DNA of 64,000 nucleotides from an uncultured virus (IMG/VR IMGVR_UViG_3300027760_000001) (IMGVR_UViG_3300027760_000001); one strand, 5' to 3'; positions 32,852 through 63,521 are shown, counted from the first letter of the stretch. A program made the numbers and translations. Notes: generated by a model not told the origin, from the letters alone.

Positions 32852-33550
32852 ATGCCTAGACCAGAAATCTCTTTCCCTGACCACCAAACAGAGTTGCGCC
32901 ATGGTCTGAAAATCTTGCTTGATGCTGGCTTAACGGCAAAACAAATTGAAGACATTCGTGAACGATTTGGCGCTGGTCCTGGCAAGATTCCATATAACAA
33001 AGAAACTGTTGGCGTTCGACGCTATATGGTCCAGGAGTTGCTGGCCAATAATCTTAGTAATGCTCAAATTGCCAGGGTGCTTCAACTAAGCAAGGAAACA
33101 GTCAATGCTGATCGCCACCAAAATCGTGGTCTATGGGCTGAAAGCATTCTCAAAAGTCAAGACTGCCATAGAGCAAGAATCATCAATGAAGCAATCAGCC
33201 TTAAGGAACAAGCTCTCATTCATTTTGAACAAAGCAAACGAAAAAGAATCACTGCTATTGGTGACAAAGGAGAAACTGTTACCGTTATAGAAGGCGCTGG
33301 TGAAAGTGGCTTCTTGACCGTGGCCAAGAACTGCCTTGAGCAGCAAGCAAAAGTTCTCGGGCTATATGACATTAAGCCACAAACTGAAGAGAAGAAAAGC
33401 TATAAAGGCTTCTTGGATGATCTTGCAAAGACAATTTCCGATGTGAAGGAAAAAGAAGAAAAGTCAAAATCAATTGACGTTAATTTCAAGGTGGAAGACG
33501 AGCCAAAGGAGGACGATGGGAGGAAAATGTTTGGCAGCACAAAAGTATGA
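32852..33550 (+). CDS. HTH protein, candidate terminase small subunit
   Basis: LSNAQIARVLQLSKETVNAD HTH, helical hairpin, EQQAKVLGLY. Confidence 0.5.
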   Translation: MPRPEISFPDHQTELRHGLKILLDAGLTAKQIEDIRERFGAGPGKIPYNKETVGVRRYMVQELLANNLSNAQIARVLQLSKETVNADRHQNRGLWAESILKSQDCHRARIINEAISLKEQALIHFEQSKRKRITAIGDKGETVTVIEGAGESGFLTVAKNCLEQQAKVLGLYDIKPQTEEKKSYKGFLDDLAKTISDVKEKEEKSKSIDVNFKVEDEPKEDDGRKMFGSTKV

Positions 33551-35414: not shown

Positions 35415-35524
35415 TTGCAAAGCATAGCATGCCTTGGGCCAAGCCAAGAATTTCCGAAGTCTGCTACCATGCACATTGCCGCCCAGGCGACTGGCGGCCC
35501 TTGGTAATTTCTTTCTTTCAACAA

Positions 35525-35890
35525 ATGCTGAAACTTACTTTTCTTTCCGTTCTTGCTGCACTGTCTTTCTTGCCAGTATCAGCAGGGGCTGCTTCGTCGC
35601 GTCAATGTTCACAGGCTTCGTTCTATGGTCACAATGATGGCTTTGCTTGGCAGACAATGGCAAACGGCCAGTCAATGAATCCAGAATCAATGATTACTGC
35701 CCATCGTTACTTTCCTTTTGGTACTCGCTTGCGAGTGGTAAATCAAGACAATGGGAAAGAAGTGGTGGTGAAAGTCACAGACCGTGGGCCGTTTGTCGAC
35801 GGACGCTCGCTTGATTTGTCTGTTGGTGCCTTCAAGCGCATTGCATCGCCTTCGCAGGGTGTAGCGCGAGTGTGCTTCTTTGAAGTGTAG
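35525..35890 (+). CDS. rlpA: RlpA-like lytic transglycosylase (DPBB) with signal peptide
   Basis: ASFYG, MANG, TAHRYFPFGTRLRV, VTDRGPF, LDLS. Confidence 0.88.
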   Translation: MLKLTFLSVLAALSFLPVSAGAASSRQCSQASFYGHNDGFAWQTMANGQSMNPESMITAHRYFPFGTRLRVVNQDNGKEVVVKVTDRGPFVDGRSLDLSVGAFKRIASPSQGVARVCFFEV

Positions 35891-35901
35891 TCCTGGCGGA
35901 C

Positions 35902-35930
35902 TTGACGGAAGCGGCCAGCATGCGTATATT
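35902..35930 (+). promoter_or_regulatory. Sigma70-type promoter
   Basis: TTGACG-N17-TATATT. Confidence 0.7.
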
Positions 35931-35987
35931 GGCAGTGGAAGTTCGGGGGCTACGGAGCCCCCTTTTTCCTTTCCATGGAAATTGGCA

Positions 35988-36434
35988 ATGGCACAAAAGC
36001 TTTACAATCTGCAGCTCACTGAAAAGCAACTGCTCCTGCTTGCTGAAGCTGCCAATTTGATGCAAAGAGTGCAACTAGGACAATGGAGAGAAATCGAAGA
36101 CAATCTTCCTCTTCAAAGGCCAATTGATTATGAGCAACTTCACAAAGATTTTATCGTCATTGGCGAAATTCTGTCCAGTCATTTGATTGATGGAATTGAC
36201 GGTCGCTTTTCTTCCTTGGGAATTGGTAGTAATAATTTGCCAAAATCTAACAGCATTTTATATGATTTACGGACAACCATAGAGCATAAAGTAAGCTGGG
36301 AACGTGCAGTAGAGCAAGGTATTATCGAAAGCGAGAGTTCTCCTCGTAAATGGCCTGAAATGATGACTGTAAACTTTGACCCTCCTATGAAATGGAGCGA
36401 TGAGCCATTGCCGAAAATCACGAGGATAAAATAG
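35988..36434 (+). CDS. Hypothetical protein
   Basis: ORF after the promoter. Confidence 0.65.
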   Translation: MAQKLYNLQLTEKQLLLLAEAANLMQRVQLGQWREIEDNLPLQRPIDYEQLHKDFIVIGEILSSHLIDGIDGRFSSLGIGSNNLPKSNSILYDLRTTIEHKVSWERAVEQGIIESESSPRKWPEMMTVNFDPPMKWSDEPLPKITRIK

Positions 36435-36638
36435 TTGTTTTCCGATGGCGATATTGTTGACCTTAATGACCAGAATTTTGGCTGGCGTGGTCAATATATT
36501 GTCATGGCGAAGAAAGTGGACACGCCATTGATAAAGATTAAAAACCTGGGTACTGGCTCGCAACAGTTCGTGAGCGCAAGCAGCCTTCGCAGGAGCCAAC
36601 TGCCGCGATTCTCCTTGAAAAGCCTGCGAGCACCATAA
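36435..36638 (+). CDS. Small SH3/KOW-like hypothetical protein
   Basis: FSDGDIVDL start, beta-rich. Confidence 0.5.
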   Translation: MFSDGDIVDLNDQNFGWRGQYIVMAKKVDTPLIKIKNLGTGSQQFVSASSLRRSQLPRFSLKSLRAP

Positions 36639-36660
36639 GCAGCGCTAATGACCCATGGGC

Positions 36661-36689
36661 TTGACGAAAACACTTTAAGGCGAAACAAT
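36661..36689 (+). promoter_or_regulatory. Sigma70-type promoter followed by a GCGA hairpin
   Basis: TTGACG-N17-AACAAT; AGGGC-GCGA-GCCCT. Confidence 0.6.
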
Positions 36690-36733
36690 GGCATCAAGGG
36701 CGCGAGCCCTATGACCATCCTTTCTTTTCCACC

Positions 36734-37048
36734 ATGAAAATCATTGCTCAGCCTCAGTGGATGCTGGATCTTCGCACCAGCTTCATCAAGCGCATCATTG
36801 CCGAAGCTGGCTCCAACATCGTCAGCATTGAGTTTGTCAAGCTTGATGGCACCAAGCGGCAGATCTGCTTCAATCCCCGCGACACGCAGGAAGTGAAGGG
36901 CACTGGCACTCCCAGCTCCAAGCCCAACATCATCCGCTGCCGTGACTTCACCATTGCCCGTAAAGGCGAAGCAGCATGGCGCTCGTTCGATTGCGAGCGT
37001 GTCACCCGCATTGCCAGCAAAGGCATGGTTCGCACCTTCCAGGCTTGA
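36734..37048 (+). CDS. SH3/WYL-like (DUF2693-type) protein
   Basis: IEFVKLDGTKR..AWRSF. Confidence 0.7.
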   Translation: MKIIAQPQWMLDLRTSFIKRIIAEAGSNIVSIEFVKLDGTKRQICFNPRDTQEVKGTGTPSSKPNIIRCRDFTIARKGEAAWRSFDCERVTRIASKGMVRTFQA

Positions 37049-37074
37049 GAGCTGCTGAGAGTCAGGCAAAACGC

Positions 37075-37103
37075 TTGACTCCTGCGCCAAGACCAGTTAA
37101 TTT
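37075..37103 (+). promoter_or_regulatory. Sigma70-type promoter
   Basis: TTGACT-N17-TAATTT then TTTCAACGGGC as in the neighbouring cassettes. Confidence 0.6.
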
Positions 37104-37225
37104 TCTTTTCAACGGGCCAAACCAGTGCCCGACCGTTACTGCCGGCTGATTTATTTCCCCAGTTCGAGGAACTGACAGAAGCCAATTTCATTGCCCCTGC
37201 TCTTTCAACAAACTCTGAAACCATC

Positions 37226-37828
37226 GTGCTTAGCATTCCGTCCAACGTAGCCCTAGTGGCCGCACAGTTCTGCCACACAGACGTGTTCAAAGGCGAACTA
37301 ACCTTCGTCCATTTCGCCAAAAGACCTAGCTCCATTCGAGTGGGAAGCACCAATGGACACTACGCCTTTCGTTGCATAGTGCCAACATCAGAATCTTCCT
37401 TCATGGAAGAAGACGAACTATTGCTTCCTTCCACGGCTTTTAAAAAGAAAGCTGCCTATGGCAAGAAAATTATCCACAATGACAATGAAGCGAGATTCTA
37501 TGGGGGGAAGAAAGACCAAATGGAACTCATTGAAGCCCGGCCATGTTTAGTAAGTAGTGCTACTTTCCCTGGGCAGTTTGATAGTTTGTTCCCTACAGAA
37601 TGGGAGAACAATCCCCGGCGAGCAACTGTATTTAATAGCGAATACATGAGAACGGTTAGTGATGTAATTGCGAAGTATTCAGAGCATGGAAGAATGGAGA
37701 TGAACTTTGGTGATTCTTGCAATGCAGCAGTAACAATTACTTCGGAAATGGATGATGGCCTAAAGATGGAATTCTTGCTATTGCCTGTGATGGTCAGGCA
37801 AGACAGCGGAGCCGAAGTCGCTTTGTGA
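37226..37828 (+). CDS. Beta sliding clamp-like protein (two-domain size)
   Basis: VGSTNGHYAF, FP, FNSEYM, FLLLPV resemble DnaN ATDGHRL, FN..YL, VVMP motifs. Confidence 0.6.
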   Translation: MLSIPSNVALVAAQFCHTDVFKGELTFVHFAKRPSSIRVGSTNGHYAFRCIVPTSESSFMEEDELLLPSTAFKKKAAYGKKIIHNDNEARFYGGKKDQMELIEARPCLVSSATFPGQFDSLFPTEWENNPRRATVFNSEYMRTVSDVIAKYSEHGRMEMNFGDSCNAAVTITSEMDDGLKMEFLLLPVMVRQDSGAEVAL

Positions 37829-37900
37829 AGAAATGTTACAGAGGAGGCTCCTGCATCCTCTTTCAGGCTATTGTTCTTTCAACGAGGCGAGAGCCTCTCC
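37825..37900 (+). promoter_or_regulatory. Cassette promoter A (HLR1-like box, hairpin, TATTGT)
   Basis: GTGAAGAA-AT-GTTACAGA; TATTGT at 37869. Confidence 0.7.
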
Positions 37901-37913
37901 TTCGCTTTCAGCC

Positions 37914-38111
37914 ATGACCACTCTCTTCATCGCATTTTCCTGGAAGCTGCTGCTGCCCCTGCTGGTGGTAGTGGCGCTGCTCGACTGGCTCACGGCCAGT
38001 GACTGCCGTAAGGTGGGCCTGCTTCGCCAACGTGGCATGTCGCAACGTGCCATAGCTTCTCGCCTTGGCATCAGCCGCCATGCCGTCAGCAAGCTTTGTA
38101 AAGCTTTGTAA
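37914..38111 (+). CDS. Membrane-anchored HTH protein
   Basis: Hydrophobic N-terminus; GMSQRAIASRLGISRHAV. Confidence 0.7.
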   Translation: MTTLFIAFSWKLLLPLLVVVALLDWLTASDCRKVGLLRQRGMSQRAIASRLGISRHAVSKLCKAL

Positions 38112-38170
38112 CAAGCAGACTTCGTTGGACCTGCTTGGTTGTATTGTTGTTTCAACGGGCGCGAGCCCTT
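38095..38170 (+). promoter_or_regulatory. Cassette promoter B (perfect HLR1 on - strand)
   Basis: Reverse complement GTTACAAA-GC-TTTACAAA; TATTGT at 38142. Confidence 0.75.
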
Positions 38171-38186
38171 CCTTCACTTTTCGGCC

Positions 38187-38465
38187 ATGACCTTCAAATT
38201 CACTGCCATCGCTCCGAAACTGAATATCAACGGCACCAGCGGCATCGAGCTGCGTGATGAATATGCCAAGGCACATGCTGCCATTGAGGCTGCCATGGAC
38301 GCCCTGGCCAATGCCACGCTCAATGGTCGCGACTTTCAAACCATGGACGATGGGGCGAATGTGTTCCAGGCTGCCCGCGACCAGCGCTGCGCTGCCATGG
38401 ACCACCTCTGGGAAGCTCAGCTCTACGTGGGCGAAGTGCTGGAGCAGATCTGCGACCAACTGTGA
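38187..38465 (+). CDS. Hypothetical protein
   Basis: LNINGTS..NGRDFQ; single-gene cassette. Confidence 0.7.
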   Translation: MTFKFTAIAPKLNINGTSGIELRDEYAKAHAAIEAAMDALANATLNGRDFQTMDDGANVFQAARDQRCAAMDHLWEAQLYVGEVLEQICDQL

Positions 38466-38535
38466 ACAAATGTTACAGAGGGGCGGCAACGCCCCCTATT
38501 CAGACTATTGTTGTTTCAACGGGCCGCGAGGTCCA
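38462..38535 (+). promoter_or_regulatory. Cassette promoter C
   Basis: GTGAACAA-AT-GTTACAGA; TATTGT at 38506. Confidence 0.7.
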
Positions 38536-38555
38536 CCACCCCCCTTCCAAGCACC

Positions 38556-38882
38556 ATGACCATTTCTTTCGACATGCCTTCGATGACCTTCTGGGCCAAG
38601 GCTACCAGCCAGGAGCTGGCCATGCTTGACCTGCAGGAGCTGCATAGCCACATCTTTGGCGCCCATCCTGATACCACCATTGCTTTCCTTGAATGGCTGC
38701 CTGAGTCTGACGCTTCTACCGATGTCAAGGAGCAAGGAGCCCGCAAGCTCACCATGATGCAAGCCCCCAATCGCTATTGCAACGAAGATTGCGACAAGCG
38801 AGGCACCATGCTGTCCTGGGCTTTGCACAATGTGCCTGCTGGCCTGTGGCACCGCTTCCGCAACTCAGTTGCCTATGGCTAA
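38556..38882 (+). CDS. Hypothetical protein
   Basis: Single-gene cassette. Confidence 0.65.
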   Translation: MTISFDMPSMTFWAKATSQELAMLDLQELHSHIFGAHPDTTIAFLEWLPESDASTDVKEQGARKLTMMQAPNRYCNEDCDKRGTMLSWALHNVPAGLWHRFRNSVAYG

Positions 38883-38950
38883 GCATTGTTACAAAGGGCT
38901 GGTAACAGCCCTTTCTGGCTCTATTGTTTTTTTCACGAGGCGCGAGCCTT
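38878..38950 (+). promoter_or_regulatory. Cassette promoter D
   Basis: GCTAAGCA-TT-GTTACAAA; TATTGT at 38922. Confidence 0.7.
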
Positions 38951-38965
38951 TCCTTTTCTTTCACC

Positions 38966-39268
38966 ATGGAAACCCTTTCTTTCAACATTGATTCGCTATC
39001 TTCCACCGAGGGGCAGTGGTGGCACGACCGCTCCTTTCCTGGCATGGAGCGCCGCACTAGCCTCATGGCCGGCAGCCACAATCATTGGCTCTGGACCACC
39101 AGCATCCGCGATGCTGCCACTCGTCGCATCATTGCCCATAAGTTCTGGGCCAGCGCTCGCAACAGTCGCGAGCCCTTGGCAGTGTTCGATTCTGTTGAGC
39201 AACGCCACGAATGGCTAGAGCGCCAGTGGGAAGCTATGGAGGAGGCCGATAAACTCTGGGCTGCTTGA
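38966..39268 (+). CDS. Hypothetical protein (Trp-rich)
   Basis: Single-gene cassette. Confidence 0.65.
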   Translation: METLSFNIDSLSSTEGQWWHDRSFPGMERRTSLMAGSHNHWLWTTSIRDAATRRIIAHKFWASARNSREPLAVFDSVEQRHEWLERQWEAMEEADKLWAA

Positions 39269-39313
39269 TCGCTCCTGGGGCCTCCCAAGGCCCCTACAAT
39301 CTTCTCTTTCCCC

Positions 39314-39862
39314 ATGGAAACCTTCGACATCATCATCACCGATCCGCCATGGTCTTATTATGGTGCCCAAGACAAAATGGGAGCTTGCGGCAAAGAATAC
39401 GACACTCTCAATGATGATGACATTCGGCAATGGAAGTATCCTCTTTCAAAGAATGGCCTGCTATTTATGTGGGCAACTTGCCCTCGCCTTGATTTTGCCA
39501 TGGATTGTATCAAGCAGCATGGTTTGCATTATCGAGGCGTGGCCTTCGTATGGGTGAAAACTAAGAAAGATGGTTCTCCCATTGGAGCGCAAGGCGTGAG
39601 GCCTTCAACTGTGAAGCCCGTAGTGGAGATGGTGCTAGTTGCTTCTCCCCAAAGAATTGGACGCCCATTGAAGCTTCATGATGAATCCATTAGGCAGATT
39701 GTTTTCGCTCCAAAAGGCGAACATAGCCAAAAGCCTGAAGAAATTCAAAGCCGCATTGAGCTGATGTATCCAGATGCCACCAAAGCTGAATACTTCGCTC
39801 GTCGTCGCAGGCAGGGCTGGACATGCTTCGGCAATCAACTTGACAAGCTTCCTTCCTGCTAA
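39314..39862 (+). CDS. MT-A70 family N6-adenine methyltransferase
   Basis: DPPW, LFMWAT, FVWVK, HSQKP, EYFAR, GWTCFGNQ. Confidence 0.9.
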   Translation: METFDIIITDPPWSYYGAQDKMGACGKEYDTLNDDDIRQWKYPLSKNGLLFMWATCPRLDFAMDCIKQHGLHYRGVAFVWVKTKKDGSPIGAQGVRPSTVKPVVEMVLVASPQRIGRPLKLHDESIRQIVFAPKGEHSQKPEEIQSRIELMYPDATKAEYFARRRRQGWTCFGNQLDKLPSC

Positions 39863-39885
39863 TCTCTTTCCCCATCGAACCAACC

Positions 39886-40194
39886 ATGCACACCATCCGC
39901 ACCTACACGGACAACGGCCCCTATTTCGGAACCAGCAGAGGCAAGTATCAAGCAACTTCGCTCAAGGAAGTGATCTTCCATTGCAGGCTCGCCATGGAAG
40001 ACCAAGAGGAACTTATCGGCCTCTTCGATGCCAAGGGCACGTGCAAAGGCTTCTGGGAAGCTGAGAGCGAGGCTGAGAGCGATGGGGAAGGCGGCATGCA
40101 ATGCTCTCCCATCAGCTACGTGCTGCGGCGTCCTGACGCCACCAGGGCTCCATCCAAGGCTCGCTTTGATCGTCTCTCCGCTTTCATGCAATGA
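39886..40194 (+). CDS. Hypothetical protein
   Basis: ORF in + strand run. Confidence 0.6.
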   Translation: MHTIRTYTDNGPYFGTSRGKYQATSLKEVIFHCRLAMEDQEELIGLFDAKGTCKGFWEAESEAESDGEGGMQCSPISYVLRRPDATRAPSKARFDRLSAFMQ

Positions 40195-40439
40195 CAGTTC
40201 TTTCCATTGACTGGTGGATGTACGATGATGAGCTTGAAGCCATCAAGGTGCATGCCATGGTTGAAGATGCAGTGGTAGAAAGCGCCACTTACGACAGCCC
40301 TGAAATCTATCGTGCTGGCCTTTGTGAAGCCATCATCATGACTGACAAAGCTGACTGGCCTAAGCGTGAAGTGGATCAACTTCACTGGCTTGAACAAAAC
40401 AGTCCTGATTGGACCCTCATTTTCAAAGGACACTGGTAA
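40191..40439 (+). CDS. Hypothetical protein
   Basis: ATGA-coupled. Confidence 0.6.
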   Translation: MTVLSIDWWMYDDELEAIKVHAMVEDAVVESATYDSPEIYRAGLCEAIIMTDKADWPKREVDQLHWLEQNSPDWTLIFKGHW

Positions 40440-40441
40440 TC

Positions 40442-41020
40442 ATGAAAGTTCTCATTGCCTGTGAATACTCCGGCACTGTCAGAGACGCCTTCCTCGCACA
40501 AGGCCATGAAGCCATTAGCTGCGATTTGCTCCCCTCTGACACCCCTGGCCCGCACTATCAAGGCGATGTGCGCAACATCTTGGGAGATGGTTTTGATTTA
40601 ATGATTGCACATCCACCTTGCACTCATTTAGCTGTGAGTGGAGCACGATGGTTCAAAGACAAGCAAGTGGAACAAGCTGAGGCTCTTGATTTCGTGCGCT
40701 TGCTTCTTGGTGCTCCCATTGAAAAGATTGCCTTAGAAAATCCTATTAGCATAATTTCTTCTCGCATTCGTAAGCCTAATCAAATTATTCAACCTTGGCA
40801 ATTCGGCCACCCAGAATCCAAGAGCACTTGTCTTTGGCTGAAGAATCTTCCTTCTCTTATTCCCACAGATATTTTACCCTTGCCAAGTAGCGGTAGATGG
40901 AGCAATCAAACTCCAAGTGGGCAGAACAAACTTAGCCCTAGTGAAGATCGTTGGAAGCTTCGCAGTGCCACTTACAAAGGCATTGCACAAGCCATGGCAG
41001 ACCAATGGGGGAACGGCTGA
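40442..41020 (+). CDS. Compact DNA cytosine-C5 methyltransferase-like protein
   Basis: MKVLIACEYSG, AHPPC, LENP, GIAQAMADQWG. Confidence 0.82.
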   Translation: MKVLIACEYSGTVRDAFLAQGHEAISCDLLPSDTPGPHYQGDVRNILGDGFDLMIAHPPCTHLAVSGARWFKDKQVEQAEALDFVRLLLGAPIEKIALENPISIISSRIRKPNQIIQPWQFGHPESKSTCLWLKNLPSLIPTDILPLPSSGRWSNQTPSGQNKLSPSEDRWKLRSATYKGIAQAMADQWGNG

Positions 41021-41184
41021 TGCTATTAGTTGAGTTCTTTTGTGAAGAGAGCTGCAAGGGCACTGAGCTGCTAGAAGGCTGGTACTGGCACCAAGACGAT
41101 GGGGAAGGCATTGGAGGGCCTTTCAAGAGCCAGGATGCAGCTTGCGAAGCCGCTAGAAATGCAGAGGGTTGGCATTGTGTTTGA
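41020..41184 (+). CDS. Hypothetical protein (54 aa)
   Basis: TGATG-coupled; GWYW..GPFKSQDAA. Confidence 0.55.
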   Translation: MLLVEFFCEESCKGTELLEGWYWHQDDGEGIGGPFKSQDAACEAARNAEGWHCV

Positions 41185-41193
41185 AGCAAGAAT

Positions 41194-41277
41194 GGATCCG
41201 GCCAGGATTGTATTGAATCCGGCTGGAACTGTATTGGATCCGGCTGGAGGCGTATCGGGTCCGGCTGGAGGCGTATC
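41194..41277. repeat. Four tandem 21-bp repeats
   Basis: Consensus GGATCCGGCTGGANNYGTATY. Confidence 0.9.
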
Positions 41278-41290
41278 AAACGAAGGTCAA

Positions 41291-41466
41291 TTTAAGGATT
41301 TTCACCTTTCCTTAAGTTTTCTCACCAAATTTTAAGTTTCACCAAATTTCAAGGATTCTCGCCAAATTTCAAGGATTCTCACCTTGCCTTAAGTTTCGCC
41401 AAATTCCAAGGATTCTCATCTTGCCTTAAGGATTCTCACCTTGCCTTAAGGATTCTCACCGGAATT
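41291..41466. repeat. Mosaic array of about nine 17-21 bp repeats
   Basis: Units built from AAGGATTCTCAC or AAGTTTC heads and CAAATT or CTTGCC tails. Confidence 0.85.
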
Positions 41467-41532
41467 TAATTCTTAATTCTGATCGCCGAACCGTTGTATC
41501 CGCCGATACATCCTATTCCCCATTGGCGAACC

Positions 41533-41585
41533 GTTGTAAATAATTGTAACGATGGGGCGGATTGTCGCCTGTCTCATGGCATCAT
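41533..41585 (+). promoter_or_regulatory. HLR1-like box with -10-like element
   Basis: Reverse complement GTTACAAT-TA-TTTACAAC; TGG-CATCAT at the same 34-nt offset. Confidence 0.5.
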
Positions 41586-41780
41586 CCCGCGCACGTGCGC
41601 GGTTCAATTTTCGCTGCCATGGGCCAGCGGTTCCCTAGCACTGTGGCCGGTAGCACCAGGCAGCGCAACGTCGGCAGTCTGCGGACAGTTTAGAAATTGA
41701 CCCTAGTCTGTGGCGGTTGACGCCATGGCGGCCCATAGTGTGGGAACCGACGGCGGCGACGCCGACGGCCTACCCACCGC

Positions 41781-41981
41781 TTGAAATTTCCAATGCTAAT
41801 TGTCTGCGCTACGTCTGGGACAGTTCTCAGTGCTTCAAATTGCTACATCTTAGATGATTATCAGGTTACAGACGAATTCTTTGATACCGACCAATTGTCA
41901 GATTCTGAATTTGCGGAATTTGCTAAACAATTTGGAACTAGACTGACGCGCCAGAATCTTAAGCTGTCCGGTCAGTCCTAA
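41781..41981 (+). CDS. Hypothetical protein
   Basis: ORF in AATT-rich segment. Confidence 0.55.
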   Translation: MKFPMLIVCATSGTVLSASNCYILDDYQVTDEFFDTDQLSDSEFAEFAKQFGTRLTRQNLKLSGQS

Positions 41982-42006
41982 CATCTAATTCTTTAACTTT
42001 ACCACC

Positions 42007-42192
42007 TTGCAATTGATTATGAGTTTCCTGCCGTCAGCCCGTGGTGCCGCAGTGATCGCGGCAATCTGCCTTGGTCCAATTGTTGCGTTATTTGTTGTCA
42101 GTCTGGCAATTGAGGATCATAGAAATTTCACCTACTGTCGCTTGTATGGTTTCGGCGTCGATGCTTGCTTACTGAAAATTAACGGCCGTTAA
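42007..42192 (+). CDS. Small membrane protein
   Basis: Hydrophobic segment, Cys pair. Confidence 0.55.
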   Translation: MQLIMSFLPSARGAAVIAAICLGPIVALFVVSLAIEDHRNFTYCRLYGFGVDACLLKINGR

Positions 42193-42232
42193 TTCTCTCA
42201 ATTTTCAACCTTACCATCCTGCAATTCCGACC

Positions 42233-43111
42233 ATGCTTGCCATTAATTCCCGTGCCAAGTCTCCCGCCTCAATTGCCACACTGTGTGAGAAATTTGCCAT
42301 TAATTACCGGGAAATTCTTAGCGTCAATCCGAAGACTGAGAAATCGGCAATCCAGACTTATATCCTCCACCTAGCACCGGCTGATATCAGCGGACACAAC
42401 GTGTGTCCAGGTGCTGGAAATTGCAGGGCAATTTGCCTGCATTTCGCGGGAAATCTTGTGCACATGGGAGGAAAGCAAACGATGAGAATTCGCCGAACCT
42501 TAGCCTACTTCTACAGCCCGGAGTCCTTTGTAAAGTTGCTCATTATGGCAATTCTGCACAAGCAGAATTTGCACAAGGGAGAGAATATTGCCATCCGGTT
42601 GAATGGAACTAGCGACATCCCATGGGAAACAATCGACGTGACAATCGACGCGGAATTTGCTGCATTCTGCCGCGTTAAATTTGGTGCCATTCTGCCGATT
42701 GGCAAGCGTAACATAATGGAAATTTTTAACCACAAGCTAAAAGATTGTGGCGGTGATAGCGTGCAATTTTACGATTACACTAAGATCAGGCACAATTGGG
42801 CAGAATGCAAAAGAATAGGCTATCACCTGACGTTCAGTTATGACGGCCACGGTAATTCAGCCAACCATAAATTAGCCGCGTCAGCTATCACTGCCGGGGT
42901 CAATGTTGCCGCTTGTTTTAACGTCAAGAGAGGGCGTGACTTGCCATCGCTTGCTTATCTTGGCAATCGCAAATTCCGAGTGGTTGACGGTGACCTGACG
43001 GATTATCGGCCGGCCGATCCTGCGGGATACGTAATTGTCGGCCTGAGATTCAAATTGCCGCATGGCATTAATTACACTGACGCACAAAAAGAGGCGTTCT
43101 GTATGGGCTAA
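42233..43111 (+). CDS. GP88-family protein (radical-SAM-like Cys cluster)
   Basis: NVCPGAGNCRAICL, IRLNGTSDI, FYDYTK, YHLTFS, VDGDLTDYR. Confidence 0.8.
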   Translation: MLAINSRAKSPASIATLCEKFAINYREILSVNPKTEKSAIQTYILHLAPADISGHNVCPGAGNCRAICLHFAGNLVHMGGKQTMRIRRTLAYFYSPESFVKLLIMAILHKQNLHKGENIAIRLNGTSDIPWETIDVTIDAEFAAFCRVKFGAILPIGKRNIMEIFNHKLKDCGGDSVQFYDYTKIRHNWAECKRIGYHLTFSYDGHGNSANHKLAASAITAGVNVAACFNVKRGRDLPSLAYLGNRKFRVVDGDLTDYRPADPAGYVIVGLRFKLPHGINYTDAQKEAFCMG

Positions 43112-43183
43112 CCGTCGCATCATTGCCCGGCTTCAATTAGCCGGGCCTGTCTACTCTGCCGTTCCAATTTACTAATTGCCGCC

Positions 43184-43408
43184 ATGGCTTCGACTATTCA
43201 AAGGGAGCTTTATTTCGACCAGTTTCTAGTGTGGTGCTACGTGCCAAACTATAATTTAACAGGCTGGGAGTTGCCCTACGTTGTAGAGAATTCCTGCCCT
43301 AGTCTGGCGGACGCTCACTCTCACGCTCGGACGCTACGGCTACACTATCCCGGCCATCTTTTCTCCGTTACCACTGGCAAGTTTCCCAAGCCTGCAATTA
43401 ACCCATGA
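43184..43408 (+). CDS. Hypothetical protein
   Basis: ORF in + strand run. Confidence 0.55.
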   Translation: MASTIQRELYFDQFLVWCYVPNYNLTGWELPYVVENSCPSLADAHSHARTLRLHYPGHLFSVTTGKFPKPAINP

Positions 43409-43587
43409 CTCCCCTAATTCCCACTGCATTAACTGATCGCAACCCTCCCGCAGATGCTTACAATTTTGAGGGCAAGTGCTGGTATGGTGCTAACGATTGC
43501 GGGCAAATTTGCTGGCAACTGCTAGATTCTCCCACTTGCGCAGATACGCACTGGCTTCCGTGGTGGGCCATCCCTGCCGTCCCGTAG
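43405..43587 (+). CDS. DUF551-like small protein
   Basis: EGKCW..THWLP. Confidence 0.55.
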   Translation: MTPLIPTALTDRNPPADAYNFEGKCWYGANDCGQICWQLLDSPTCADTHWLPWWAIPAVP

Positions 43588-43596
43588 CACTGCAGG

Positions 43597-43630
43597 AGAG
43601 GCCCCTAGGATCGCTTCTAAGGGGCCTCTC
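43597..43630 (+). terminator. Strong hairpin after the last AATT-segment gene
   Basis: GAGAGGCCCCT/AGGGGCCTCTC; no U-run. Confidence 0.5.
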
Positions 43631-43749
43631 CCCTAGGTTAGGTTGAACCGTGGCCAGGATGGGCGATCGTAGGCTCTGGCAGGGTACAGAGCCGAGACAG
43701 GGAGAATCCCCCTAAATATAGCAAATTCTCACCAACTAAAAATATAATT

Positions 43750-43799
43750 ATTACAAATTGTTACAGTTTTCCAGGCTTGCGCGTTTGCCATGGTAGAGT
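43750..43799 (+). promoter_or_regulatory. HLR1-like box with -10 element
   Basis: ATTACAAA-TT-GTTACAGT; TGG-TAGAGT at the same 34-nt offset. Confidence 0.55.
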
Positions 43800-43848
43800 A
43801 AGCTGCAGAGCAGTAACCGGGAGGCTAGGCAAGTCGGGGCCGGGGTAT

Positions 43849-43935
43849 CCCAATTATACGGGCGGCATAATTTTCATCGACTTTTGATTTTCCCAATTAA
43901 AGCGGGGCGTAATTTTTCATCGACTTTTGATTTTT
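43849..43935. repeat. Imperfect direct repeat, 2 x about 43 bp
   Basis: CCCAATTA...TAATTTTCATCGACTTTTGATTTT twice. Confidence 0.85.
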
Positions 43936-44013
43936 CCTTCAACAATGGCGAGAAGCCAGTCGGCACTGTCCGAACGATCTAGCCTGAGCGAGAAGAGAGT
44001 GAGGACACTATGG

Positions 44014-48952: not shown

Positions 48953-49380
48953 GATAGAGGCTTGGTCCCTGTTTGTCTACGCCTGGTTCACTCACAGCCC
49001 GATTGTCGGTAGGTCAGTCACACCAAGTTCTTCTGTCAATCCTCAGATGCCATTTCCTGGTTTCCGTAGTCTGGGGTGCTAAAAATGGAAATCAGCTTTC
49101 CCTCCATTGCTCTGTCGATGGAGAGCAGCACAAGGACTGGAAAATTCTGGTCCTTGCGTCTGCGTAGGGTTTGGTCCACCTTGGAGCCCTCGACCCATTT
49201 GGCAAGCTCGACGGACCTAGCGGTGGTTGCTGGCAATAGCCGGTGACCTACTTTGCAGAGACCGCTTAAACACCCCCTAAGCCTCTTAACAATGCTCAAA
49301 CAAGGGGGTCACTGGCCCTTGGTGTTGGATCACGCCAGGCACATAGCCTGGAACACTGGGTTCGATTCCCAGAAGCGCCC
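48953..49380 (+). ncRNA. Candidate large structured ncRNA (or ncRNA train) ending in a tRNA-like module
   Basis: Extended -10 TGcTATAGT at 48937-48945; continuous stems and pseudoknots; no credible ORF; T-arm CTGGG-TTCGATT-CCCAG. Confidence 0.6.
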
Positions 49381-61677: not shown

Positions 61678-61979
61678 GCGAATACGTGCAGGTGGTCGAA
61701 GAGGAAGAGGACGGCATTGGCATCATGAAGGCCCTGGCTGTTCTTTCTTCAAATGAGCACAGGGATACTTGTCATTGGCGGCTGATAGAAGAGCAGCATT
61801 TCAAAAATGGAAGGCTTGATGAAACTCATATTTTTGTAACAAACCACTACGAAAAGCCGCATGAAATTTTTGCTCCCATTAAGCTCCTAGTCTTTGAAGC
61901 AGAAGCGCTTGCCAATGCTTACATCATGGAAAACATTGAGAACCAGTTGGCAGAGATTCGCGGAGAAAATGATGACTAA
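61674..61979 (+). CDS. Hypothetical acidic protein
   Basis: GTGA-coupled. Confidence 0.6.
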   Translation: MSEYVQVVEEEEDGIGIMKALAVLSSNEHRDTCHWRLIEEQHFKNGRLDETHIFVTNHYEKPHEIFAPIKLLVFEAEALANAYIMENIENQLAEIRGENDD

Positions 61980-62272
61980 TCTTCTACTGCGGATGCCACA
62001 AATGTTGGATAACCCAGCAAGTACAAGATAGAAAGCTGAAAAAGAGAACTAAGTACACGAATTTGTCCACAGTCAGGCGATATTTGCCCACGCTCCATTC
62101 TCGATATTGTTGTTTGATCGCAGTGGATGGTTTTTGCGATATCCGACTGCGACAATCCACAGTTTAAGCGAGCTTGCCTGAGTCTGTCGCCAATAATTTT
62201 CCTGCTTTCTTGAATGGTGACAATGGGGGCGTTAAGCTTCTTGGTGATCCGTCGTTGTTGAGTGTGCTGCAT
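61976..62272 (-). CDS. XRE-family HTH regulator
   Basis: IGDRLRQAR..GLSQSDIA..TISRMERG..P. Confidence 0.85.
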   Translation of the reverse strand: MQHTQQRRITKKLNAPIVTIQESRKIIGDRLRQARLNCGLSQSDIAKTIHCDQTTISRMERGQISPDCGQIRVLSSLFQLSILYLLGYPTFVASAVED

Positions 62273-62333
62273 TTTTAGGCAGTATATCCTAAATACCATT
62301 ATTCTACACAATAATTTCAGATAAAGTAGAGGC

Positions 62334-63521
62334 ATGAGCGACACATGCTTTCGCTACGACGTAGCTCCCATTGACAAGTACGAAGTAACCCCAGAAGGTT
62401 ACCTTCGCGCTTGGGCGACCATTGCCCGCACTGGCGTACAACAGTACACCGATGCTGATGGTTCCATTCGCCGGGAGTATCGTCCTGAAAGTGAAGTGGC
62501 GTCTCCTTCAAGCTTGGCCTCGTTTGCGGGCAAAGCAATCACCCTTGAGCATCCTCCAGTCCTTCTAGATAGCGCCAATACAAAGGACTATCAAGTTGGA
62601 TTTAGTGGCACTGAAGTGGTTTATGACGACGGCTTTGTTCGTGCAGTCATGACTATCACTGATGAAGAAGCCATTAAGCGCATCATGCGTGGAGATGCAA
62701 AAGAAGTCAGCGCTGGTTATCGCGTTAACTATGAGGCAACTCCTGGTGTAACTGATAGCGGTGAGAATTACGATGGCATCCAAAAGGAAATCAGCGGAAA
62801 TCACATTGCTGTTGTTCGTAGAGGCCGTGCTGGCCCGCAGGTCAAGCTTCATCTAGATCGTCTGGATGCCGCTGATCCTTCTCTAATTTCTCCTATTGAG
62901 GAACCATCTATGACTGCAAAAGTCAATTTTGATGGCGCCGAGTTTGAGGTGACCGAGAGCGTAGCTCTGGCGATCACCAAAGAACGGGAAGACGCCAAGA
63001 TGTCCTTTGAGGACATGAAGAAGAAATATGACGAGCTTAAGGCTGCGTCTGATTCTATGAAGTCCGAAATGGATGCCATGGAAAAGAAAATGAAAGGCCA
63101 ATGCGATTCTGCTGAAGGTCGTGCCGATGCTCTTTCTGAAGAACTGAACAGCCTCAAGGCCGACCTTGAAGTTGCTCAGCAAGTGAATGTTGACAGCCTT
63201 GTTGAAGAGCGCGTTGCGTTGATCGACAAAGCTCGCACTTCTCTTGATTCTGCCTTTGATTTCTCTGGCAAAACTGCCCGTGAGATCATGGAAGCTTCTG
63301 TGAAGGCTGTTCGTGGTGATGTTGATCTTTCGGAGCGTTCCGACGATTACATCACTGCCATGTTCGACACTCTGGCTGATGTTTCCCGTAGCGATTCAAC
63401 CACTGATGAGCTGCGTAAGGCTGTTGCCTCCATCAATTCCCCATCGTCTGCTCCTTCGTCCTACATGGACAAGTTGCAAAACGCTTGGAAATCCCCCCTC
63501 TCCGTTTCTAAGGAGCGCTGA
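62334..63521 (+). CDS. DUF2213 prohead protease/scaffold protein
   Basis: TPEGYL..IARTG, ITLEHP, EVSAGY, NHIAVV..GRAG; coiled-coil C-terminal half. Confidence 0.88.
   Translation: MSDTCFRYDVAPIDKYEVTPEGYLRAWATIARTGVQQYTDADGSIRREYRPESEVASPSSLASFAGKAITLEHPPVLLDSANTKDYQVGFSGTEVVYDDGFVRAVMTITDEEAIKRIMRGDAKEVSAGYRVNYEATPGVTDSGENYDGIQKEISGNHIAVVRRGRAGPQVKLHLDRLDAADPSLISPIEEPSMTAKVNFDGAEFEVTESVALAITKEREDAKMSFEDMKKKYDELKAASDSMKSEMDAMEKKMKGQCDSAEGRADALSEELNSLKADLEVAQQVNVDSLVEERVALIDKARTSLDSAFDFSGKTAREIMEASVKAVRGDVDLSERSDDYITAMFDTLADVSRSDSTTDELRKAVASINSPSSAPSSYMDKLQNAWKSPLSVSKER

Follow-up and report, generated by a model that had tools for sequence, protein, structure and literature searches.

HLR1-like boxes in place of the -35 element at early promoters of an S-CBS4-like cyanophage clade, and their probable activation by host RpaB

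What takes the place of the -35 element at phage promoters that lack one? The question is raised here by a stretch of 64,000 nucleotides (the window), which is bases 1-64000 of a 73,014-base uncultured virus record (IMGVR_UViG_3300027760_000001) classed as complete with direct terminal repeats. The promoters concerned lie in its region 35900-43600, a run of small genes, most of unassigned function, including two DNA methyltransferases, a small helix-turn-helix (HTH) protein and a GP88-like gene; from their layout and the host-type -10 elements, these are presumably early genes. A first-pass annotation had proposed that six of the promoters carry a box like HLR1, the element bound by the cyanobacterial OmpR-type regulator RpaB. 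On the whole, our analysis suggests that these box promoters, which stand in cassettes of a cyanophage similar to S-CBS4, are probably activated by host RpaB and thereby need no -35 element.

The GTWAC half-sites are found at 37835, 38108, 38472, 38888, 41546 and 43760, and all six are followed by a -10-like hexamer 34 nt downstream, start to start, which leaves a gap of 29 nt; the constant offset and the hexamers (TATTGT four times, CATCAT and TAGAGT) are as the first-pass annotation had given them. Its contrast with the neighbouring promoters at 35902, 36661 and 37075 is also borne out, since these have a TTGAC -35 while none of the six box promoters (0/6, the last two judged from the sequence by eye) has TTGAC 16-18 nt before the hexamer. 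If transcription starts 12 nt downstream of the hexamer's first base (37881, an A after C, for the first promoter), the box spans predicted positions -59 to -42 with its centre at -50.5, reverse to transcription. Mismatches are counted against KTTACAWW-N2-KTTACAWW, which is 18 bp long with a 10-bp period. The features, with folding free energies (dG) and open reading frames (ORFs), are as follows.

37822..37839, minus strand: HLR1-like 18-bp direct repeat, 2 mismatches, predicted -59 to -42; overlaps the stop codon of ORF 37226-37828
37840..37861, plus strand: terminator-like spacer hairpin over the -35 position, dG -10.6
37869..37874, plus strand: -10 TATTGT, predicted start 37881, then a leader hairpin; would drive the small HTH-bearing ORF 37914-38111
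38095..38112, minus strand: perfect HLR1 repeat, 0 mismatches
38113..38147, plus strand: weak spacer hairpin, dG -7.0, and -10 TATTGT at 38142-38147; would drive ORF 38187-38465
38459..38476, minus strand: HLR1-like repeat, 3 mismatches; overlaps the stop codon 38463-38465
38477..38511, plus strand: spacer hairpin with GCAA loop, dG -14.4, and -10 TATTGT at 38506-38511; would drive ORF 38556-38882
38875..38892, minus strand: the weakest of the boxes, with 4 mismatches, 9.8 bits and a single good half-site; overlaps the stop codon 38880-38882
38893..38927, plus strand: spacer hairpin with GTAA loop, dG -14.6, and -10 TATTGT at 38922-38927; heads the unit 38966-41020, which contains two DNA methyltransferase genes
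41533..41550, minus strand: HLR1-like repeat, 1 mismatch
41551..41585, plus strand: spacer hairpin, dG -11.0, and weak -10 CATCAT at 41580-41585
43747..43767, both strands: two-way box, read rightward at 43747-43764 (minus strand, 3 mismatches) and leftward at 43750-43767 (plus strand, 2 mismatches)
43794..43799, plus strand: -10 TAGAGT of the first-pass annotation, gap 29, with no ORF after it
43715..43720, minus strand: alternative -10 TATATT, TGC before it, gap 29 from the box, small hairpin after it
35902..35930, plus strand: comparison promoter, TTGACG -35, without box
36661..36689, plus strand: comparison promoter, TTGACG -35; several relatives have a box before its gene, 36734-37048
37075..37103, plus strand: comparison promoter, TTGACT -35

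The repeat at 38095 is perfect, as first graded, and those at 41533 and 43750 have 1 and 2 mismatches; the one at 37822, previously called degenerate, is better than that, because it has only two mismatches. No ORF of 40 aa directly follows the -10 at 41580-41585, and the 41533 box promoter is likely an upstream promoter of the block 41793-43587.

The composite of box (at most 3 mismatches), gap 29 and YANNNT hexamer occurs 5 times in 35500-44000, against a mean of 0.03 and a maximum of 1 in 200 dinucleotide shuffles. The simpler pattern of the first-pass annotation occurs there 7 times, against 0.18 with a maximum of 2 in 500 shuffles, the seventh match (41865) being inside an ORF. When a matrix made from relatives only is run over the 73-kb genome, 8 sites reach at least 14 bits, against 0.44 in 50 block shuffles, and five of the six window boxes are among the 8, the exception being the one at 38875. 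In addition, a host-derived matrix correlates with the phage matrix at 0.83 and ranks the six window sites 1, 5, 7, 10, 11 and 46 of 145,994, a result that is not independent because its sites came via the phage pattern. The canonical TGn extended -10 was considered as the reason for the missing -35 and dismissed, being present in only 1 of 65 sites of the clade.

These 65 sites come from related loci (L003-L075) fetched with three proteins, after exclusion of nine ribonucleotide reductase loci of other phage types and of three whose sequence is identical to the window; two duplicate loci were also dropped in later counts. When up to 3 mismatches are allowed, the relatives have 293 distinct sites. 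In reverse orientation a -10 stands at gap 28-29 in 44 of them and at gap 38-40 in 14, against 0-5 at any other gap, and in forward orientation at gap 28-29 in only 2. The relatives matrix finds 131 non-redundant matches in 64 loci (921,594 bases), of which 65, from 26 loci, are in register with a -10 at 28-30 or 38-41 nt, and the other 66 have no in-register -10. Among the 65 boxes, 56 have at most 3 mismatches to HLR1. Box and spacing are therefore conserved in related phages, a check that had been proposed with the original reading. A de novo search by expectation maximization, with no HLR1 prior, in 39 promoters of 18 loci picked by -10 and leader returns WTTGTDAMGNWTTGTDAC in 33 of the 39, at gaps of 28 (16), 29 (11), 30 (2) and 39-41 (4), and is not fully independent, because the leader patterns derive from sites first found via the box. 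The box shows no in-register enrichment in the whole genomes of Syn9 and S-CBS2, nor in those parts of S-PM2, S-CRM01 and P-SS2 that were scanned. Among viral contigs, the right spacing occurs in about 220 stretches and a wrong spacing in about 160, hence most isolated viral matches are chance; 43 of 120 distinct viral-contig sites are in clade-like loci, 39 of these 43 with the hairpin.

Two further kinds of site were seen. Two strong matrix matches lie on the minus strand of G000 at 70726-70743 and 71774-71791, outside the window. They fall inside a tape-measure ORF, a -10-like hexamer accompanies each at gap 29-30, and they are antisense promoters or chance. Four to seven HLR1-like half-sites in tandem, with a 10-bp period, are found without an in-register -10 on the plus strand at L068:4172-4250, L015:13470-13530 and L043:4214-4260, where the window has other repeats; such an array is possibly an RpaB-loading site, an origin or a terminus.

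The kind of box was judged from its geometry. At period 10 its identity is 0.61, falling to 0.33-0.38 when the period is set to 9, 11 or 12. The exact word TGT-N7-TGT is present in 39 of the 65 sites and the pseudo-dyad TGT-N11-AC in 49, and the positions that tell them apart favour the direct repeat (positions 9/13: GT 46, GC 1; positions 8/14: AG 38, AT 0), those diagnostic of a dyad failing. By these measures the box is an HLR1-like direct repeat of 10-bp period. For comparison, an NtcA box lies about 22 nt before the -10, the CRP consensus is TGTGA-N6-TCACA, and Pho boxes have an 11-bp period. The clade sites, with their gap of 28-30, include 0/65 with the NtcA palindrome GTA-N8-TAC (PMC3037559), 0/65 with the CRP consensus at up to 2 mismatches, 0/65 with PyTTAAPyPyT/A half-sites of Pho type (PMC10976474) and 0/65 with an 11-bp TGT repeat. 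Boxes of the NtcA/CRP family, whose binding had been named as what might overturn the RpaB reading, thus do not fit, nor do Pho boxes, as the geometry fails in 65 of 65 sites.

In the predicted position of the box, the phage promoters correspond to those known to be activated by RpaB. Activating HLR1 sites are centred near -51, and reverse-strand ones lie at -59..-42 (psaA P2), -58..-41 (psaD) and -60..-43 (psaM and cpcG1), with others further upstream at -68..-51 (lexA) and -70..-53 (psaC); forward-strand activating sites are known at isiA, psaF and apcE (PMC6525291; its strand column is taken as promoter-relative, following its methods). The reverse sites correspond to phage gaps of 29, 28, 30 and 38-41, and the predicted position and the orientation of the phage box are those of the Synechocystis psaA activating site. 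Moreover, the 18-mer at 38095 is identical to the HLR1 site listed for Synechocystis psbA2 (PMC6525291). Prokaryote genomes contain this exact 18-mer in 44 stretches, and 16 of these bear titles of photosynthetic cyanobacteria. Four of those precede an ORF that is probably psbA. The sequence, period, orientation and predicted distance of the box support the original claim in part; its special subset is not borne out.

The likely hosts were then compared at genes picked beforehand as published RpaB-activated targets. For psaD, 30 loci were fetched and 28 parsed, and in 24 of the 28 the best reverse box before the gene keeps register with a -10-like hexamer; the eight picocyanobacteria-like loci have it at gap 39-41 with 5 mismatches. 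For psaA and psaE, an in-register box at gap 30 is found in 5/5 loci each, with low scores, all in one genus that is probably Cyanobiaceae-like; before psaF, a conserved element lies at gap 40-41 in 18/30, but its score is poor and it fits better in forward orientation. Thirty of the 36 matches of the phage pattern in five host genomes were fetched, and 10 of them lie beside hli-like genes and 3 beside ftsH-like genes, close to where these begin; both classes are published RpaB targets (PMC6525291, PMC13421787). RpaB itself exceeds the NCBIfam cut-off in one host-clade genome (397.5 against 330), and near-identical RpaB-like proteins are present in three more. The hosts thus likely encode RpaB and have weaker boxes in the same registers at psaA, psaD and psaE. 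Besides these targets, some cyanobacteria (L133-L137, L146 and L147) show a conserved reverse HLR1-like box with in-register -10, opposite an RNA-binding-like gene and without clear downstream ORF, a possible RpaB-activated small RNA.

The first-pass annotation had assigned the box to a subset of early genes, and here the result is different. A census of promoters with a leader hairpin in 13 early regions (the window, S-CBS4 and 11 relatives, some incomplete) gives 45 with the box only, 13 with TTGAC only and 2 with both; it demanded exact TTGAC, so that other -35 forms are missed. A first census agrees (71 box, 17 TTGAC, 4 both), and TTGAC or TTGCC is present in 6 of the 65 clade box sites. 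In three relatives, promoters resembling the one at 37075 carry box and TTGAC together. In G275, a 95% complete genome, the early block contains 7 box promoters and none with TTGAC, and early promoters with only a -35 are absent from G284. For the gene family of 36734, the promoter is of -35 type in three genomes and of box type in four; for that of ORF 38187-38465, it is of box type in 11 of 11 promoters found. Taken from such counts, the box class is the commonest early promoter type of the clade and not a gene-specific subset; the census, G275 and the switch of the 36734 family argue against a gene-specific regulon, and likewise against an activator made from the -35 class.

The box is also part of a larger unit. 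Between box and -10, the spacer is taken up by a GC-rich hairpin that covers the -35 position, and the predicted start is followed by a small leader hairpin. The spacer hairpin has a dG of -8 kcal/mol or lower in 47 of 65 sites and z of -2 or lower against mononucleotide shuffles in 43 of 65; at least 4 T in the next 8 nt are found after only 24 of the 47. The spacer varies freely in sequence, its stems slide among the seven window sequences in fixed-column covariation, and its length is constant at 28-30 or one turn more. The cassette recurs in the window (repeats D2, D5 and D8), and gene order differs between relatives. As far as structure can tell, the box sits in a promoter-terminator cassette similar to PeSL, the repeated intergenic promoter with stem-loop that is spread by recombination (PMC2839356). 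As with the PeSLs of T4-like phages (PMC2839356, PMC4122927), a repeated intergenic cassette extends between the upstream stop codon and the downstream ATG, with a polyG/polyC hairpin over the promoter core before small ORFans in a variable region. Unlike the PeSLs, which have a consensus sigma-70 -35 and -10, the present cassettes mostly carry an activator box instead of the -35, belong to a siphovirus, and are only presumed to recombine. In S-CBS4 (L001:25440-25500) the TTGACA of a -35-type promoter forms the loop of a terminator-like hairpin, and the hairpin-in-promoter design is therefore common to both promoter classes.

In the mechanism proposed here, the reverse box at predicted -59 to -42 would recruit host RpaB, whose phosphorylated dimers on the two half-sites would recruit host RNA polymerase, as at photosystem I promoters; the second register (gaps 38-41) would be the same arrangement one helical turn further upstream. 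The phage would in this way borrow a strong host activator that is already there at infection. The spacer hairpin may end or trim the upstream transcript, in which case each small gene would be its own unit, shuffled between cassettes. Activation by RpaB requires both binding and phosphorylation, and high light lowers the phosphorylation (PMC13421787). In S. elongatus, RpaB occupancy tracks changes of light (PMC5785211), and release may be transient, for example at lexA. If RpaB is the factor, the balance is about even on whether high light would dephosphorylate and release it so that early transcription dips; a light effect on phage transcription is accordingly about half as probable as activation by RpaB. 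Doubtful, in our view, is the widest proposal, that the whole siphovirus clade launches its early programme almost wholly from copies of host photosystem I promoters, with phospho-RpaB essential and the onset redox-gated. Were it true, infection would be favoured in low light or shade and stalled after a shift to high light, giving a molecular cause of light-timed infection without phage photosynthesis genes.

Several points weigh against activation by RpaB. Pho box predictions in one cyanophage could not be relied on without binding tests (PMC10976474). The clade sites have common ancestry, and the leader patterns anchoring the de novo search have the dependence mentioned above. S-CBS4 itself offers a single strong site in register (gap 41), besides two weak ones. 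The photosystem I boxes of picocyanobacteria are weak (5-7 mismatches, -4 to +6 bits), with psaA and psaE known from the one genus. The phage pattern in the five host genomes gives its 36 matches against 38 for a reversed control, which may itself match HLR1, and box with spacing in 251 cyanobacterial genomes gives only 33 against 16. In one Synechocystis genome the pattern has 0 matches, and such host counts are uninformative. An upstream stop codon stands in or beside the box in 47 of 63 cases and may constrain part of it. Finally, each host-clade genome has 9-14 OmpR-type regulators, including possible HLR1-like binders.

The last point leads to the strongest of the other explanations, in which another host regulator of OmpR type (SrrA, RpaA or an uncharacterised one) reads the box, and the signal is not the light/redox state of RpaB. 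SrrA is an RpaB homologue and a preferred NblS substrate, RpaA and RpaB compete at shared promoters (PMC13421787), and at the third HLR1 position the phage box allows T, A or C more than the strict consensus does. This is nevertheless unlikely, for the 38095 18-mer is the very site listed for psbA2, the best host matches adjoin hli and ftsH, and the registers are those of photosystem I promoters activated by RpaB.

Quite unlikely is that the boxes are middle promoters, served by a phage activator that is either expressed from the -35 promoters or brought in with the virion. Phage activators of the middle-promoter kind include T4 MotA, Mu Mor and lambda CII. Two promoter classes do occur within one region, and small HTH genes are present at 37914-38111, 32852-33550 and 61976-62344. 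No gene family is consistently under a -35, however, with the 36734 family switching class and G275 and G284 as described above; the HTH gene 37914 is itself under a box, and a phage activator would leave the match to host promoter geometry unexplained. An activator delivered by the virion might still be at work. Very improbable is that the box is only a by-product of a duplicated recombination cassette, of stop codons and of terminator flanks, the -10 region alone sufficing: the likeness to PeSLs (PMC2839356), the stop codons and the window site with 4 mismatches would suit it, but the spacer length is held though the sequence is free, both half-sites are under equal constraints, and box and TTGAC are nearly exclusive (both in 2/60, TTGAC/TTGCC in 6/65).

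Host activation by RpaB is the reading retained. The ribonucleotide reductase and terminase of the virus are closest to those of Synechococcus phage S-CBS4 (62.5% and 58.7% identity), whose host is Synechococcus sp. CB0101, and the gene order around the box region parallels that of S-CBS4. By these comparisons, the genome is that of a complete S-CBS4-like siphovirus. The two sequencing runs in which this DNA occurs are of freshwater metagenomes, possibly the ones it came from; their reads show neither differences nor joints over the box region and no depth doubling that would mark a terminal repeat. The host is likely a freshwater picocyanobacterium, because of the two closest matches and the freshwater metagenome. 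A terminase search of prokaryote genomes found three phage-like contigs in unrelated bins, of no use for assigning the host. In the phage genome, with working controls, neither an OmpR-type regulator nor sigma-70 region 2 was found, and the psbA/psbD and hli families had no match; a 92-aa protein is without Pfam or PHROG match. Loose contig ends are seen at window 49097-49316, after nrdB and beside a tRNA-Met gene (49314-49380).

The sixth site may in fact drive a leftward transcript. From the -10 at 43715-43720 this would run antisense to 43184-43587, and among the relatives the in-register promoter at the equivalent place points leftward in six and rightward in one. Beside this terminal box, L042, L049, L063, L065 and L068 have clusters of TAGTAC/GTAC words, degenerate in the window, which resemble the consensus of cyanobacterial LexA sites. 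Further on (window 43836-43940), relatives and window alike have a GGGGTATCCC-like element and, after it, a TTTTCATC tract just 5' of an HNH endonuclease gene; the arrangement resembles a packaging site, and a 43-nt tandem duplication comes next. To the left, the interval 41000-44000 has 19-26 AATT per kb against 0-7 elsewhere, and at the left edge of this block, window 41193-41481, are two short tandem repeat families with units of 21 nt and about 20 nt. The equivalent block of the relatives is equally odd in composition, but different. The window block may be a first-entering or recently acquired segment.

The clade promoters can be compared with other cyanophage systems. Like the early-promoter dyad of T4-like cyanophages (S-CRM01, S-PM2 and Syn9), which we presume to be that of Doron et al. 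2016, they have an element about 30 nt before the -10, often without clear -35; unlike this inverted repeat of other spacing, theirs is a 10-bp direct repeat. An element resembling the dyad is present 30 nt before CATAGT in a second promoter of the 41533 block (window 41681-41745), with one in-register copy only among the clade loci scanned. HLR1 boxes are found in our scan at psbA and psbD of S-PM2 and at hli, psbA and psbD of Syn9, at or just after the -10, which is a repressing position, and mostly with a TTGAC -35. Both cases put a box of host RpaB type on phage DNA, the S-PM2 and Syn9 ones at host-derived photosynthesis genes and the present ones in activating position at genes of the phage's own. 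HLR1 sites in cyanophage genomes had indeed been reported before, as stated in the introduction of PMC6525291. With the host activating class, found at photosystem I and phycobilisome promoters (PMC6525291, PMC13421787), the clade shares the 18-bp repeat of 10-bp period, its predicted centre near -51, reverse as at psaA P2, psaD, psaM and cpcG1, and its second register is that of lexA and psaC; unlike the host sites, the phage boxes precede small unassigned genes and methyltransferases, are repeated with a spacer hairpin, and are candidate binding sites. PhoB, also an OmpR-type regulator, binds S-PM2d promoters (PMC10976474), and NtcA sites are predicted in cyanophages (PMC3037559). As at the PhoB (S-PM2d, P-SSM2) and NtcA promoters, a host environmental regulator would stand over phage genes; those act on selected genes under nutrient stress, whereas here another motif makes up the main early promoter type of the clade. 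No report of activating HLR1 boxes at phage early promoters was found in the literature listings and passages covered; PMC9964418, PMC6359870, PMC10452541, PMC4503421, PMC6331805 and an MED4 preprint, as far as covered, add nothing on them.

On the whole, a clade-wide promoter architecture is real on these data and is a variant of the use of host regulators by phages, and its gating by light is plausible. Cyanophage infection is light-dependent, for which adsorption or energy supply is the usual explanation. If RpaB switches on the first phage genes, the master light/redox regulator of the host would be a direct input to the start of infection, and such an input would act in phages without psbA or hli genes. 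Cultured S-CBS4 on Synechococcus CB0101 has at least one strong in-register box, and the clade provides dozens of natural variants of the activating HLR1, whose spacing (28-30 and 38-41 nt) is bounded more sharply than by the host data.

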